A stretch of DNA of 64,000 bases from Escherichia coli. GTDB lineage: Bacteria; Pseudomonadota; Gammaproteobacteria; Enterobacterales; Enterobacteriaceae. Below are positions 39,685-56,034 of this stretch, piece by piece. Position numbers and translations under genes: made by a program. How positions within the stretch are numbered: position 1 is the stretch's first letter; each line of letters begins with the position of its first letter. The stretch lies in assembly GCF_044647545.1 (NCBI RefSeq), contig NZ_CP172818.1, one strand, 5' to 3'. A model generated the notes under the pieces. It was given only the letters and a program-made list of their open reading frames with translations, had not been told where the DNA came from and made no database searches.

Positions 39685-39849
39685 CGTCTAAGCGTGACAT
39701 ACCGGATGGCGAGTTGCCATCCGGTAAAATAACATCCCACCTAAAGTATTAACCCTTTCTTTTCATCTGGTTGTTTATTAACCCTTCAGGAACGCTCAGA
39801 TTGCGTACCGCTTGCGAACCCGCCAGCGTTTCGAATATTATCTTATCTT

Positions 39850-39866
39850 TATAATAATCATTCTCG
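39850..39866 (+). promoter_or_regulatory. Fur box (iron box) in fhuA promoter
   Basis: tataataatcattctc resembles Fur consensus gataatgataatcattatc; about 40 nt upstream of fhuA start. Confidence 0.7.
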
Positions 39867-39903
39867 TTTACGTTATCATTCACTTTACATCAGAGATATA
39901 CCA

Positions 39904-42087
39904 ATGGCGCGTTCCAAAACTGCTCAGCCAAAACACTCACTGCGTAAAATCGCAGTTGTAGTAGCCACAGCGGTTAGCGGCATGTCTGTTTATGCACAGG
40001 CAGCGGTTGAACCGAAAGAAGACACTATCACCGTTACCGCTGCACCTGCGCCGCAAGAAAGCGCATGGGGGCCAGCTGCAACTATTGCGGCGAAGCACTC
40101 TGCTACTGCGACTAAAACGGATACACCAATTGAAAAAACGCCGCAGTCTATTTCGGTTGTGACAAATGAAGAGATGCAGATGCATCAATTTCAGTCTGTA
40201 AAAGAAGCATTAGGTTATACACCTGGCGTTACAGTTAGCAGTCGTGGTGCTTCTAATACATATGATTTTGTTATCATTCGTGGTTTCTCATCTGTTGGCC
40301 TGAATCAAAATAACTACCTTGATGGACTAAAACTTCAGGGCAACTTTTATAACGATGCTGTGATTGATCCTTACATGCTCGAGAGGGTTGAACTGATGCG
40401 TGGGCCGACGTCTGTTCTCTATGGAAAAAGTAATCCTGGTGGGATTATTTCTATGGTGAGTAAGCGCCCGACCACTGACCCCCTGAAAGAAATTCAGTTT
40501 AAAATGGGGACGGATAATCTGTTTCAGACCGGATTCGATTTCAGTGATGCGCTGGATGATAACGGTGAGTTCTCCTACCGTTTGACTGGCCTCGCTCGCT
40601 CAACAAACGAACAGCAGAAAAACTCTGAATCTCAGCGTTATACCATTGCTCCATCATTCTCATGGCGGCCGGACGACAAAACCAATTTAACTTTCCTGTC
40701 CTATTTCCAGAATGAACCAGAAACGGGTTATTACGGTTGGTTGCCGAAAGAGGGGACCGTTGAGCCATTGCCTAATGGTAAGCGTCTACCGACTGACTTC
40801 AATGAAGGTGCGTCGAATAATACATACTCCCGTAACCAGAAAATGGTGGGATATAGTTTTGAACATGGTTTTAATGACACCTTCACCGTGCGTCAGAATC
40901 TGCGTTTCAGTGAAATGAAAACCTCACAGAAAAGTGTTTATGGCCACAGGGATTGCCAGCGATGGTCATACCCTAAACCGCGGGACAGTGGTGGATAATG
41001 AGCGTCTACAAAACTTTAGCGTTGATACCCAACTTGAAAGTAAGTTTGCTACAGGTGACGTCGGGCATACTTTGCTGACAGGGGTAGACTTCATGCGTAT
41101 GCGCAATGATATCAATGCCAGCTTTGGATCTGCACCATCCATCGATCTTTATAACAAATACCATCCTGAATACTTTGCATTTGGTAGCGCAGAGCCATAC
41201 CAGATGAATGAAAGCAAACAAACAGGTATTTATGTTCAGGATCAGGCGGAATGGAATAAATGGGTATTCACTCTGGGGGGGCGCTACGATTGGTCTAAGC
41301 AAGCGACCAAAAACTCTTATACGCCGACTGAAGGTTATATTGAGCGCAATGATCATCAGTTCACCTGGCGCGGTGGTGTAAATTACTTATTCGATAATGG
41401 TATTTCACCTTACTTTAGCTATAGCCAGTCCTTTGAACCGAGTGCTTTCGATCTGGGAACAAGCAACCCGCGCGTTTCCTATAAGCCATCGAAAGGTGAA
41501 CAGTATGAAGCTGGCGTAAAATATGTTCCGAATGATATGCCGGTCGTTGTTACGGGCGCAGTCTATCAATTGACGAAAACAAATAACCTGACAGCAGACC
41601 CAACAAACCCCATTAGCGAAGTCCCGCAGGTGAGATTCGCGCTCGTGGTGTGGAACTTGAAGCAAAAGCGGCGTTAAATGCCAATATTAACTTGACGGCT
41701 TCTTATACCTACACCGATGCGGAATACACCAAAGACACCAATCTCAAAGGTAAAACTCCAGAACAAGTACCGAAGCATATGGCATCTCTCTGGGGGGATT
41801 ATACCTTCAATGAAGGGCCGTTTTCTGGTTTAACATTGGGAACAGGTGGTCGTTTTATTGGTTCCAGCTATGGTGATCCGGCGAACACTTTTAAAGTGGG
41901 TAGCGCAGCTGTAATGGATGCTGTTGTAAAATATGATCTGGCACGCTTTGGTATGGCGGGATCCAGCCTTGCTGTGAACGTCAACAATTTGCTCGATCGT
42001 GAGTATGTTGCCAGTTGCTTCCAGACCTATGGCTGCTTCTGGGGCGCAGAACGTCAGGTCGTTGCAACCGCAACCTTCCGTTTCTAA
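39904..42087 (+). pseudogene. fhuA: Ferrichrome outer membrane transporter / phage T1-T5-phi80 receptor FhuA, disrupted by two compensating 1-nt indels (apparent pseudogene or sequencing error)
   Basis: Three ORFs 39904..40998, 40934..41677, 41650..42087, each with clear FhuA homology; frames 1-2-1; switches near 40941..40950 and 41618..41632; total span is a multiple of 3 (727 codons). Confidence 0.65.
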
Positions 42088-42137
42088 TTTCTCTTTTGGG
42101 GCACGGATTTCCGTGCCCGTTTCACAAGTTGGCTGTT

Positions 42138-42935
42138 ATGCAGGAATACACGAATCATTCCGATACCACTTTTGCACTGCGTAATATCTCCTTTCGTGTG
42201 CCCGGGCGCACGCTTTTGCATCCGCTGTCGTTAACCTTTCCTGCCGGGAAAGTGACCGGTCTGATTGGTCACAACGGTTCTGGTAAATCCACTCTGCTCA
42301 AAATGCTTGGCCGTCATCAGCCGCCGTCGGAAGGGGAGATTCTTCTTGATGCCCAGCCGCTGGAAAGCTGGAGTAGCAAAGCGTTTGCCCGCAAAGTGGC
42401 TTATTTGCCGCAGCAGCTTCCTCCGGCAGAAGGGATGACGGTGCGTGAACTGGTGGCGATTGGTCGTTACCCGTGGCATGGCGCACTAGGGCGCTTTGGT
42501 GCGGCAGATCGCGAAAAGGTCGAGGAAGCTATCTCGCTGGTTGGCTTAAAACCGCTGGCGCATCGGCTGGTCGATAGTCTCTCTGGCGGCGAACGTCAGC
42601 GGGCGTGGATCGCCATGCTGGTGGCGCAGGATAGCCGTTGTCTGTTGCTCGACGAACCGACCTCGGCGCTGGATATCGCCCACCAGGTTGATGTGCTGGC
42701 GCTGGTGCATCGTTTAAGTCAGGAGCGTGGCCTGACGGTCATTGCCGTGCTGCACGATATCAATATGGCTGCGCGTTACTGTGATTATCTGGTCGCCCTG
42801 CGCGGCGGTGAAATGATTGCTCAGGGAACGCCTGCGGAAATTATGCGCGGCGAAACCCTCGAAATGATTTATGGCATCCCGATGGGTATTTTGCCGCATC
42901 CGGCGGGTGCTGCACCTGTGAGTTTTGTTTATTGA
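42138..42935 (+). CDS. fhuC: Iron(III)-hydroxamate ABC transporter ATP-binding protein
   Basis: ORF 42015..42935; start at ATG 42138 (MQEYTNHSDTTFALRNISFRVPG...); Walker A GHNGSGKST; 265 aa. Confidence 0.93.
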   Translation: MQEYTNHSDTTFALRNISFRVPGRTLLHPLSLTFPAGKVTGLIGHNGSGKSTLLKMLGRHQPPSEGEILLDAQPLESWSSKAFARKVAYLPQQLPPAEGMTVRELVAIGRYPWHGALGRFGAADREKVEEAISLVGLKPLAHRLVDSLSGGERQRAWIAMLVAQDSRCLLLDEPTSALDIAHQVDVLALVHRLSQERGLTVIAVLHDINMAARYCDYLVALRGGEMIAQGTPAEIMRGETLEMIYGIPMGILPHPAGAAPVSFVY

Positions 42936-43825
42936 TGAGCGGCTTACCTCTTATTTCGCGCCGTCGACTGTTAACGGCGATGGCGCTTTCTCCGTTGTTA
43001 TGGCAGATGAATACCGCCCACGCGGCGGCTATTGATCCCAATCGTATTGTGGCGCTGGAGTGGTTGCCGGTGGAATTACTGCTGGCGCTCGGCATCGTGC
43101 CTTACGGCGTGGCGGATACCATCAACTATCGCCTGTGGGTCAGCGAACCGCCATTGCCGGACTCAGTGATTGACGTTGGTTTGCGTACAGAACCTAACCT
43201 TGAACTGCTGACCGAAATGAAACCATCGTTTATGGTCTGGTCGGCAGGATATGGCCCTTCACCAGAAATGCTGGCACGTATTGCGCCGGGTCGCGGATTT
43301 AACTTCAGTGACGGCAAACAGCCGCTGGCGATGGCGCGTAAATCACTGACGGAAATGGCAGATTTACTTAACCTGCAAAGCGCAGCAGAAACGCATTTAG
43401 CGCACTATGAAGACTTTATCCGCAGCATGAAACCCCGCTTTGTGAAGCGTGGTGCACGCCCGTTATTGCTGACGACACTTATCGATCCGCGCCATATGTT
43501 GGTCTTCGGTCCAAACAGCCTGTTCCAGGAAATTCTTGATGAGTACGGCATCCCAAATGCCTGGCAAGGGGAAACCAACTTTTGGGGCAGTACCGCCGTC
43601 AGTATCGATCGTCTGGCAGCGTATAAAGACGTTGATGTGCTCTGTTTTGATCACGACAACAGCAAAGACATGGATGCGCTAATGGCAACCCCGCTGTGGC
43701 AGGCCATGCCGTTTGTCCGCGCCGGACGCTTTCAGCGCGTTCCGGCGGTCTGGTTCTATGGTGCGACGCTTTCTGCAATGCACTTTGTGCGTATTCTGGA
43801 TAACGCCATCGGAGGTAAAGCGTGA
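42935..43825 (+). CDS. fhuD: Iron(III)-hydroxamate periplasmic binding protein
   Basis: ORF 42932..43825 (track start is TTG); ATG at 42935 gives MSGLPLISRRRLLTAMALSPLLWQMNTAHA (Tat-type signal); 296 aa. Confidence 0.92.
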   Translation: MSGLPLISRRRLLTAMALSPLLWQMNTAHAAAIDPNRIVALEWLPVELLLALGIVPYGVADTINYRLWVSEPPLPDSVIDVGLRTEPNLELLTEMKPSFMVWSAGYGPSPEMLARIAPGRGFNFSDGKQPLAMARKSLTEMADLLNLQSAAETHLAHYEDFIRSMKPRFVKRGARPLLLTTLIDPRHMLVFGPNSLFQEILDEYGIPNAWQGETNFWGSTAVSIDRLAAYKDVDVLCFDHDNSKDMDALMATPLWQAMPFVRAGRFQRVPAVWFYGATLSAMHFVRILDNAIGGKA

Positions 43826-45804
43826 GTAAACGAATTGCGCTTTTTCCGGTGTTATTGCTGGTGCTGCTGGTGGTTGCTGCTGCGGCGTTGACCTGGATGA
43901 ACTTCTCGCAGGCGCTGCCGCGCAGCCAGTGGGCGCAGGCCGCCTGGTCGCCGGATATTGACGTCATCGAGCAGATGATTTTTCACTACAGCTTGTTGCC
44001 GCGTCTGGCGATTTCGCTGCTGGTGGGCGCGGGCCTGGGGATGGTGGGCGTGCTGTTTCAGCAAGTGCTGCGTAACCCGCTGGCGGAACCGACGACGTTG
44101 GGTGTTGCAACAGGCGCGCAACTGGGGATTACCGTCACCACGCTCTGGGCGATCCCAGGTGCTATGGCGAGCCAGTTTGCTGCGCTGGCAGGGGCTTGTG
44201 TTGTTGGCTTAATCGTCTTTGGCGTCGCGTGGGGGAAACGGCTTTCGCCGGTAACGCTGATCCTCGCGGGGCTGGTAGTGAGCCTTTATTGCGGCGCAAT
44301 CAATCAGTTACTGGTTATCTTCCATCATGACCAACTGCAAAGCATGTTCCTGTGGAGCACCGGAACGCTGACGCAAACCGACTGGGGCGGCGTTGAGCGT
44401 TTATGGCCGCAGCTGCTGGGCGGCGTGATGCTGACGTTATTGCTACTTCGCCCGTTAACCCTGATGGGGCTTGATGATGGCGTGGCGCGCAATCTCGGGC
44501 TGGCCTTGTCGCTCGCGCGTCTGGCGGCGTTGTCGCTGGCGATTGTCATCAGTGCGCTGCTGGTGAACGCGGTGGGGATTATCGGCTTTATCGGGTTGTT
44601 CGCGCCGCTGCTGGCAAAAATGCTGGGGGCGCGGCGTCTGCTGCCACGGTTAATGCTGGCGTCGCTGATTGGTGCGTTAATTCTGTGGCTTTCTGATCAA
44701 ATCATCCTCTGGCTGACTCGCGTGTGGATGGAAGTTTCCACCGGTTCGGTCACTGCGTTGATCGGTGCGCCGCTGTTACTGTGGTTGCTGCCGCGTTTAC
44801 GCAGCATTAGCGCGCCGGATATGAAGGTGAACGATCGTGTCGCGACTGAACGCCAACACGTGCTGGCGTTTGCCCTCGCGGGCGGCGTGCTGCTGTTGAT
44901 GGCTGTGGTGGTGGCGCTGTCGTTTGGTCGTGATGCGCACGGCTGGACGTGGGCGAGCGGGGCGTTGCTCGAGGATTTGATGCCCTGGCGCTGGCCGCGA
45001 ATTATGGCGGCGCTGTTTGCTGGCGTCATGCTGGCGGTGGCGGGCTGTATTATTCAGCGGCTGACCGGAAACCCGATGGCAAGCCCGGAAGTGCTGGGGA
45101 TTAGCTCCGGCGCGGCGTTTGGCGTGGTGTTAATGCTGTTTCTGGTGCCGGGTAATGCCTTTGGCTGGCTGTTACCCGCAGGCAGTCTCGGGGCGGCGGT
45201 GACGCTGTTGATCATTATGATCGCCGCCGGACGCGGTGGATTTTCCCCACACCGCATGTTACTGGCGGGGATGGCGTTAAGTACCGCGTTCACGATGCTT
45301 TTGATGATGTTGCAGGCAAGTGGTGACCCGCGAATGGCGCAAGTTCTGACCTGGATTTCCGGTTCGACCTACAACGCGACCGAGGCGCAGGTCTGGCGCA
45401 CGGGAATTGTGATGGTAATTTTGCTGGCGATTACCCCGCTGTGCCGCCGCTGGCTGACCATTTTACCGCTGGGCGGTGATACCGCACGAGCCGTGGGGAT
45501 GGCGCTGACGCCGACGCGAATTGCGCTGCTGCTGTTAGCGGCTTGCCTGACAGCGACTGCGACAATGACCATTGGACCGTTGAGTTTTGTTGGTTTAATG
45601 GCACCGCATATTGCGCGGATGATGGGCTTTCGACGGACGATGCCGCATATTATGATTTCGGCGCTGGTGGGTGGTTTACTGCTGGTGTTCGCTGACTGGT
45701 GTGGGCGGATGGTGCTGTTTCCATTCCAGATCCCAGCGGGGCTGCTGTCGACCTTTATCGGCGCGCCGTATTTTATCTATTTGTTGAGAAAGCAGAGCCG
45801 TTAA
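43822..45804 (+). CDS. fhuB: Iron(III)-hydroxamate ABC transporter permease (duplicated-domain)
   Basis: ORF 660 aa, polytopic membrane protein; 4-nt overlap with fhuD. Confidence 0.93.
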   Translation: MSKRIALFPVLLLVLLVVAAAALTWMNFSQALPRSQWAQAAWSPDIDVIEQMIFHYSLLPRLAISLLVGAGLGMVGVLFQQVLRNPLAEPTTLGVATGAQLGITVTTLWAIPGAMASQFAALAGACVVGLIVFGVAWGKRLSPVTLILAGLVVSLYCGAINQLLVIFHHDQLQSMFLWSTGTLTQTDWGGVERLWPQLLGGVMLTLLLLRPLTLMGLDDGVARNLGLALSLARLAALSLAIVISALLVNAVGIIGFIGLFAPLLAKMLGARRLLPRLMLASLIGALILWLSDQIILWLTRVWMEVSTGSVTALIGAPLLLWLLPRLRSISAPDMKVNDRVATERQHVLAFALAGGVLLLMAVVVALSFGRDAHGWTWASGALLEDLMPWRWPRIMAALFAGVMLAVAGCIIQRLTGNPMASPEVLGISSGAAFGVVLMLFLVPGNAFGWLLPAGSLGAAVTLLIIMIAAGRGGFSPHRMLLAGMALSTAFTMLLMMLQASGDPRMAQVLTWISGSTYNATEAQVWRTGIVMVILLAITPLCRRWLTILPLGGDTARAVGMALTPTRIALLLLAACLTATATMTIGPLSFVGLMAPHIARMMGFRRTMPHIMISALVGGLLLVFADWCGRMVLFPFQIPAGLLSTFIGAPYFIYLLRKQSR

Positions 45805-56021: not shown

Positions 56022-56034
56022 CACAGAATGACCA

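Follow-up and report, generated by a model that had tools for sequence, protein, structure and literature searches.

The window analyzed here, a 64-kb stretch of E. coli DNA, contains the gene order mrcB-fhuA-fhuC-fhuD-fhuB-hemL, as deduced from its open reading frames (ORFs) and from the annotation of near-identical genomes, which is the syntenic position of FhuA. Over the 64 kb it shares about 99.9% identity with E. coli FDAARGOS_497 and with a group of genomes to which "strain ST648", MS6198, ECONIH1 and IMT16316 belong, and in the 6 kb on either flank of fhuA no mismatch to FDAARGOS_497 is found. Judging by these identities, the host genome is an ST648-like clone, its closest genomes being ST648, that is, phylogroup F.

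In this sequence fhuA (39904-42087, plus strand) displays an E3-type allele in the form of a frameshifted pseudogene, split into three ORF fragments at 39904-40998, 40934-41677 and 41650-42087, and a single uninterrupted fhuA reading frame is not present in the window. Intact copies in near-identical genomes measure 2190 bp (729 aa), versus 2244 bp (747 aa) in K-12. The genes fhuC (42138-42935), fhuD (42935-43825) and fhuB (43822-45804) follow on the same strand; all are intact, and the segment 42138-45804 shows 0 differences from FDAARGOS_497. The fhuA promoter region carries a Fur-box-like site at 39847-39865 (plus strand) that matches 14 of the 19 positions of the 19-bp Fur consensus, a score reached by only 8 sites within the 64 kb. 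The stretch from 39747 to 40073, which includes this promoter region, is identical to K-12. The initial annotation had described a truncated fhuA preceded by a Fur box and followed by an intact fhuCDB, and the description holds in each of its parts: three ORFs with a stop codon at 40996-40998, a consensus match within a promoter region of K-12 sequence, and three whole downstream ORFs identical to those of ST648 genomes. The fhuA-fhuC spacer contains a stem-loop, GGCACGG ATTT CCGTGCC, with a 7-bp stem, at 42100-42117 and 20 nt 5' of the fhuC ATG; compared to K-12 this spacer holds only one difference, at 42119, directly 3' of the stem.

Membership in the FhuA family was assessed with the NCBIfam profile NF007465 ("ferrichrome porin FhuA", an equivalog), the curated cut-off of which is 803 bits. 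With 1405.6 bits over profile positions 1-726, the intact ST648 allele clears this cut-off, whereas none of the window fragments does: they reach 707, 356 and 292 bits and cover profile positions 1-352, 348-573 and 582-726, respectively. Since the intact allele lies above the cut-off and the fragments lie below it, the allele class is, by profile score, a member of FhuA and the window copy a broken member. The allele conforms to the FhuA architecture of a TonB box, a cork domain and a 22-strand barrel, with the TonB box, DTITV, at precursor residues 40-44. Eight of ten putative ferrichrome-contact positions in the K-12 structures are identical (the exceptions are Q100 -> L and Y315 -> T), while an eleventh candidate position did not show the expected residue even in K-12. 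Every solved FhuA chain is matched by the allele from end to end (E-value 0), and none of these chains belongs to the allele class itself. An AF2 model shows the strand pattern of the barrel; its confidence is low outside residues 250-520 (mean pLDDT 55.8), and it was used only for boundaries in residues 250-600. With K-12 FhuA (PDB 1BY3, 2FCP and 8A8C) the window allele shares family and architecture, from which it departs in being 77% identical and in having an L4 without the disulfide loop.

Extent and nature of the divergence from K-12

The FhuA of the window is 77.4% identical to the K-12 protein (about 78% at the DNA level), while the flanking genes differ from K-12 by only 1-4%. The divergence from K-12 delimits a replaced segment at 40074-42027 (plus strand), defined by mismatch density, GC content and pS. 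The first dense mismatches are found at 40074-40093 and the last one at 42027, with K-12-identical sequence on both sides; fhuA itself begins with 170 nt and ends with 60 nt that are identical to K-12. In a 14-kb alignment the mismatches per 200 bp amount to 25-68 inside fhuA and 0-19 outside; intervals within the block contain 37-68, and the 200-bp interval over its 5' edge about 29. When fhuA was set against its neighbors, a comparison with mrcB and fhuC that the initial annotation had suggested, a pS of 0.67 was obtained for fhuA (0.73 for the cork and 0.77 for the barrel) versus 0.06-0.135 for hrpB, mrcB, fhuC, fhuD and fhuB, and dN was 0.17 overall and 0.157 in the cork. The GC content of fhuA is 46% versus 55-58% in the flanks, and its GC3 43% versus 62-71% in the flanking genes.

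Identity to K-12 by region is 81% for the cork, 75% for the strands, 75% for the periplasmic turns and 66% for the extracellular loops, with strand and loop boundaries taken from the moderate-confidence AF2 model of the intact allele. Loops L3, L9 and L10 are almost unchanged, whereas L4-L8 are strongly different and carry most of the length differences, the loops holding 24 of the 34 gap columns. Relative to K-12, L4 has 17 residues fewer and no cysteine pair, L5 has 8 fewer, L6 has 5 more and L7 has 2-3 more; L7 and L8 are different as well.

The initial annotation had proposed that fhuA is divergent among conserved neighbors, had located this divergence in the surface loops as a localized receptor diversification, possibly by recombination, and had quoted two peptides, SVVTNEEMQMHQFQS and NASFGSAPSIDLYNKYHPEYFAFGSAEPYQMNESKQTG, as examples. 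Both peptides are present in the window FhuA, their K-12 counterparts being SVVTAEEMALHQPKS and NAWFGYDDSVPLLNLYNPVNTDFDFNAKDPANSGPYRILNKQKQTG, and the divergence among conserved neighbors is confirmed by the identities given above; likewise, recombination is supported by the sharp edges of the block and by a synonymous saturation found only inside it. The placement in the surface loops, however, is only partly correct, as the differences form one continuous block that includes the cork, and the first of the quoted peptides lies in the cork domain instead of a loop. That a native K-12-like fhuA was locally diversified in its loops under phage and colicin pressure could appeal to the known role of FhuA as a phage and colicin receptor (PMC10373560) and to the low conservation and the gaps of L4-L8, but the synonymous saturation extends over the whole block, and this divergence at synonymous sites already refutes it. 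Moreover, the cork and the periplasmic turns are 19-25% different, the block is sharp-edged and of lower GC, and the allele clusters with those of other genera, which makes such an origin practically untenable. Because the loops are the most different part and yet the whole gene is divergent, a different allele lineage accounts for the data, and not a local diversification of a K-12-like allele. Based on these comparisons, the whole fhuA gene has been replaced in the window by one from an old and distinct FhuA lineage, which occurs in other genera too.

Relationship to known fhuA alleles

Four clusters of E. coli FhuA, E1-E4, have been described, and the FhuA tree was reported to conflict with that of fhuCDB (10.1101/320069, Wang et al. 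2018). Cluster E3/S2 is without the insertions Indel 3 and Indel 4, which E1/S1/E2 bear at two loop apexes, and carries the insertions Indel 5 and Indel 6 at two other apexes (10.1101/320069). The window allele agrees with the losses in L4/L5 and the gains in L6/L7, in the order of the paper, and like the E3/S2 genes (Wang, Chen, Zhu, White and Koster 2018) it is present once in the chromosome, in the syntenic position. Accordingly, the allele matches FhuA cluster E3, an assignment set by the published description of the indel pattern and not by the sequences of that paper. In contrast to the cluster as described, the window copy is also frameshifted.

The B4/H24RxC clone of ST410 was reported to have acquired, through recombination, an alternative allele of fhuA with <74% nucleotide identity (PMC6715731), and a gene cluster named "fhuA_2" is described for ST38 and for sequence types of phylogroup F (PMC9836092). 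The window allele matches the "fhuA_2" of phylogroup F. As in these two cases, two classes of fhuA, of <74-78% nucleotide identity, coexist and are moved by allelic replacement; by its description the ST410 allele (WP_039023099.1) resembles that of the window and may belong to the same class. In addition, "fhuA sequence divergence" has been tied to natural resistance to microcin J25 (PMC10926693). Hence the allele class and its recombinational spread are already known and the central observation is published; the sole element beyond this published picture is the cluster of private small indels in fhuA.

Distribution and origin of the allele

Carriers of the allele, at an identity of at least 95%, make up 562 of 5,426 complete E. 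coli genomes (about 10%); among the remaining ones, 85 are at 80-90% identity and 4,777 at 60-80%. In a scan with one genome per species, the closest proteins are those of Citrobacter sp. Res13 (93%), Superficieibacter (91%), Lelliottia nimipressuralis (91%) and Kluyvera intermedia (89%), and a separate clade at about 77% contains K-12, E. whittamii and S. enterica arizonae.

A recent import of the E3 allele from another genus, as opposed to an old polymorphism passed within Escherichia, would be in line with the nearest non-E. coli relatives belonging to Citrobacter, Superficieibacter and Lelliottia, as well as with the low GC3 of the gene. Nevertheless, the best foreign homologue stands at a dS of 1.8, which is saturated, and therefore no sampled species is a recent donor, while the fhuA copy of SCPM-O-B-8794, a divergent Escherichia lineage, stands at a dS of 0.093, an ordinary within-species depth, from which it follows that the allele has long circulated within Escherichia. 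We thus consider a recent import very unlikely. E. coli SCPM-O-B-8794 (NZ_JAATUR010000035.1) carries the same fhuA allele class as the window, and in a rough count from the listed mismatches the two differ by about 3% in fhuA and by about 6% in fhuCDB. Since fhuA is closer than its flanks, the comparison suggests that the sharing of fhuA by recombination postdates the split of the lineages.

The segment, which represents a second, old allele class, was most probably acquired by homologous replacement at the native mrcB-fhuA-fhuCDB locus, with crossovers within the conserved 5' end of fhuA, which comprises the signal peptide and the TonB box, and within its conserved 3' end. Taken as a whole, an E3-type allele brought in by homologous replacement, and present in this genome as a frameshifted pseudogene, is the best explanation of the locus, and one in which we have considerable confidence.

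Private lesions in fhuA

Relative to FDAARGOS_497 and DFL.5, the fhuA of the window contains six private indel events with a net loss of 6 bp, all given here on the plus strand. At 40943-40944, at the upper end of the strand preceding L4, an additional C (GGC -> GGCC) causes a +1 frameshift that leads to the premature stop codon. A 9-bp deletion at 41309-41310, on the boundary between a strand and L6, removes CTGTTCGTG and changes TVRE to K, and a complex change at 41456-41461, in loop L7, converts CTGTGGAGC into CTGGGAACAAGC (W -> GT, net +3). The remaining events form a cluster in loop L8 (41608-41626), with an additional C at 41608-41611 (CCC -> CCCC), the loss of a C after 41618 and the loss of a G after 41625. 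The +C/-C pair, 7 bp apart, is in frame when taken together and replaces LAQ by ISE, whereas the lost G is a -1 frameshift back to the ATG frame; the +1 at 40944 and the -1 at 41625 are two uncompensated frameshifts. The placement in L8 was made by alignment to K-12 D552-F558, with the loop definition of PMC10373560, in which L8 is the loop needed by T5, phi80 and SO1-like phages. Based on the K-12 alignment and the AF2 model, all lesions map to the extracellular face, in L4, L6, L7 and L8, and the residues that they alter are conserved in the FhuA lineage ("ATTVR" at the L6 site, W/Y at the L7 site).

These lesions are absent from all 562 carrier genomes, in which the best identity over 40900-41700 is 97.8%; the junctions of the L8 cluster and of the 9-bp deletion gave 0 hits each in metagenome contigs, and an exact look-up of the truncated 364-aa product in the gene-position collection found no entry. 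Two candidate sources were tried and rejected. Patches from another fhuA allele were sought in about 80 homologous loci, among which K-12 was the sole representative of the other E. coli allele classes, and no novel 12-mer or 13-mer spanning a lesion was present there. For template switching or a quasi-palindrome origin, no direct or inverted template of 8-10 nt was found within 200 bp.

Pseudogenes of fhuA that arise from indels of 1-2 bp have been described, and most fhuA frameshifts were reported to be polar on fhuCDB (10.1101/320069). The fhuA pseudogenes of Salmonella Typhi and Paratyphi A, as well as laboratory tonA mutants, resemble the window copy in their small frameshifting indels and in the retention of fhuCDB; the window differs from them in that its several lesions belong to a single, very young clone and are absent from the relatives of that clone. 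A K-12-type fhuA with an internal stop codon is found in Escherichia sp. MOD1-EC7003 (3001-5241), a genome that represents its species, and this internal stop indicates that disruption of fhuA recurs in other Escherichia.

The lesions are strongly clustered, as six of the approximately 13 private indel events of the window fall within 682 bp of fhuA (P ~2e-9 for the clustering). In about 37 kb around them there are 0 private substitutions, and almost none among the lesions themselves; over the whole window there are about two private indel events for every private substitution. The other private indels are non-coding, with the exception of one in a Yad fimbrial subunit gene, and about 50 other genes are untouched. 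Such a cluster is not what neutral decay leaves. Given that a single frameshift suffices for resistance, selection does not explain the lesions that came after it.

Some of the lesions have the look of consensus artefacts, because single-base indels that compensate each other stand close together, because a CCTGG site is turned into CCGG at 25148, and because one change adjoins a GATC site. We weighed whether all six lesions of fhuA, together with those clustered in the gene for the Yad fimbrial subunit, are sequencing or assembly errors, in an organism that would possess an intact E3-type fhuA identical to that of ST648. The ratio of indels to substitutions agrees with such errors, and so do the micro-clusters of partly compensating single-base indels at 41608-41626 and 25140-25148, the conserved nature of the residues hit and the fact that, among complete genomes and metagenome contigs, no independent sequence bears the lesions; furthermore, a polishing guided by a reference or by proteins would be expected to concentrate the remaining errors in spacers and hypervariable genes. 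On the other hand, random errors should fall mostly in the approximately 80% of the window that lies in other genes, where none is found (0.2^7, ~1e-5, even when each cluster is counted once). There is no long homopolymer among the private differences of the window, which is unlike the error profiles of nanopore, 454 and Ion Torrent, and the 9-bp, 5-bp and 278-bp differences resemble genuine deletion events. On balance, we regard errors as a serious possibility, a little short of even, and lean slightly toward lesions that are real and not errors of the consensus. If they were errors, the locus would caution against trusting the consensus in hypervariable genes.

If the lesions are real, they may reflect repeated selection on an exposed receptor, in which FhuA was alternately lost and restored under the opposing pressures of phage or bacteriocin attack and of the need for iron, the loops being reshaped along the way and the gene being now "off". 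The extracellular position of all four lesion sites accords with this reading, as do the requirement of L8 by T5, phi80 and SO1-like phages (PMC10373560), the retention of the frame by three of the events, including the +1/-1 pair 7 bp apart, and a similar private cluster in the Yad fimbrial subunit, a second gene for a surface structure. However, no intermediate was found among the 562 carrier genomes and the metagenome contigs, the altered residues are conserved and not hypervariable, the two uncompensated frameshifts cannot both have been selected, and no templated source, either another allele or a nearby repeat, was detected. We therefore hold repeated selection to be unlikely. Equally doubtful in our opinion is the broader proposition that real lesions would represent a rapid, repeated remodelling or switch-off of exposed receptors within one ST648 clone, which, if true, would imply either an indel-biased process focused on genes for surface proteins or cycles of selection for frameshifts and compensating frameshifts.

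Predicted consequences for FhuA and FhuCDB

The class of the fhuA allele decides the exposure of a strain to the phages T1, T5, phi80 and SO1-like, to colicin M, to microcin J25 and to albomycin, and it is consequently relevant to phage host-range prediction and to phage or bacteriocin therapy against ST648, ST38 and ST410, as is established knowledge. In the intact allele the differences in the loops would be expected to alter the docking of phages, colicin M and microcin J25, with most ferrichrome-binding residues kept. In the window copy, the +1 shift at 40944 would yield a product of 364 residues composed of the signal peptide, the cork and roughly the initial third of the barrel; the rest of the homology would lie in another frame, together with three more in-frame loop changes and the -1 shift at 41625. 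With only about a third of the barrel, this product is not expected to form a receptor. If the lesions are real, the cell would probably be devoid of FhuA, resistant to FhuA-dependent phages and toxins, and incapable of ferrichrome uptake.

The initial annotation had also raised the question of polar effects on fhuCDB. From the premature stop to the fhuC ATG (42138) there are 1,139 nt, and about 1.1 kb of untranslated fhuA mRNA could lower the expression of fhuCDB by Rho-dependent polarity. C-rich, G-poor stretches are found at about 41089-41170 and 41669-41780, and terminator-like hits across fhuA are somewhat above expectation (7 vs 3.0). The second ORF, which begins 5' of the premature stop, displays no evident ribosome-binding site. 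In a search for an internal fhuC promoter, hits across fhuA were fewer than in shuffled sequence and none stood before fhuC, which gives no support to such a promoter. A polar effect of the fhuA truncation on the intact fhuCDB genes is predicted and plausible, and with real frameshifts the isolate would be without FhuA and maybe have less FhuCDB, which is needed for the uptake of aerobactin and other hydroxamates.

Other private differences in the window

Within the yad fimbrial operon, which holds four of the approximately six private substitutions of the window, the gene encoding a Yad-operon fimbrial subunit (24760-25329, minus strand) carries a private complex change at 25140-25148 (and 25015). 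The complex change consists of +2, one substitution and -1 (net +1) and causes a frameshift after approximately residue 61, the deleted T lying within the CCTGG site that becomes CCGG at 25148. As a natural allele this lesion was sought and rejected, being absent from all complete E. coli genomes, with a best identity of 98.2%. A neighboring fimbrial-like gene (23517-24113, minus strand) shows two private substitutions 4 bp apart, at 24048 and 24052, which turn A21 of its signal peptide into G.

Compared to the ST648 genomes, the window is missing about 278 bp at 20169-20330, in a region that comprises the 3' end of rpnC and a small HTH_Rpn_C ORF, and a 12-bp tandem repeat, AAGACAGGAGGT, is present there in 4.8 copies versus 6.8 in the ST648 genomes. 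The rpsB-tsf spacer shows a private loss of 5 bp at 62931-62932, at the 5' edge of the palindrome GCTCGTACGAGC. Further private indels in non-coding sequence are -T at 462 (aceF-lpdA spacer), -TG at 11281 (past the gcd stop) and +C at 56032 (past the yaeH stop). Finally, codon 9 of hpt (13903) encodes L in the window and I in FDAARGOS_497, a variant that is private to FDAARGOS_497; the Hpt of the window is the common one, with 1,934 blocks of the collection containing it.
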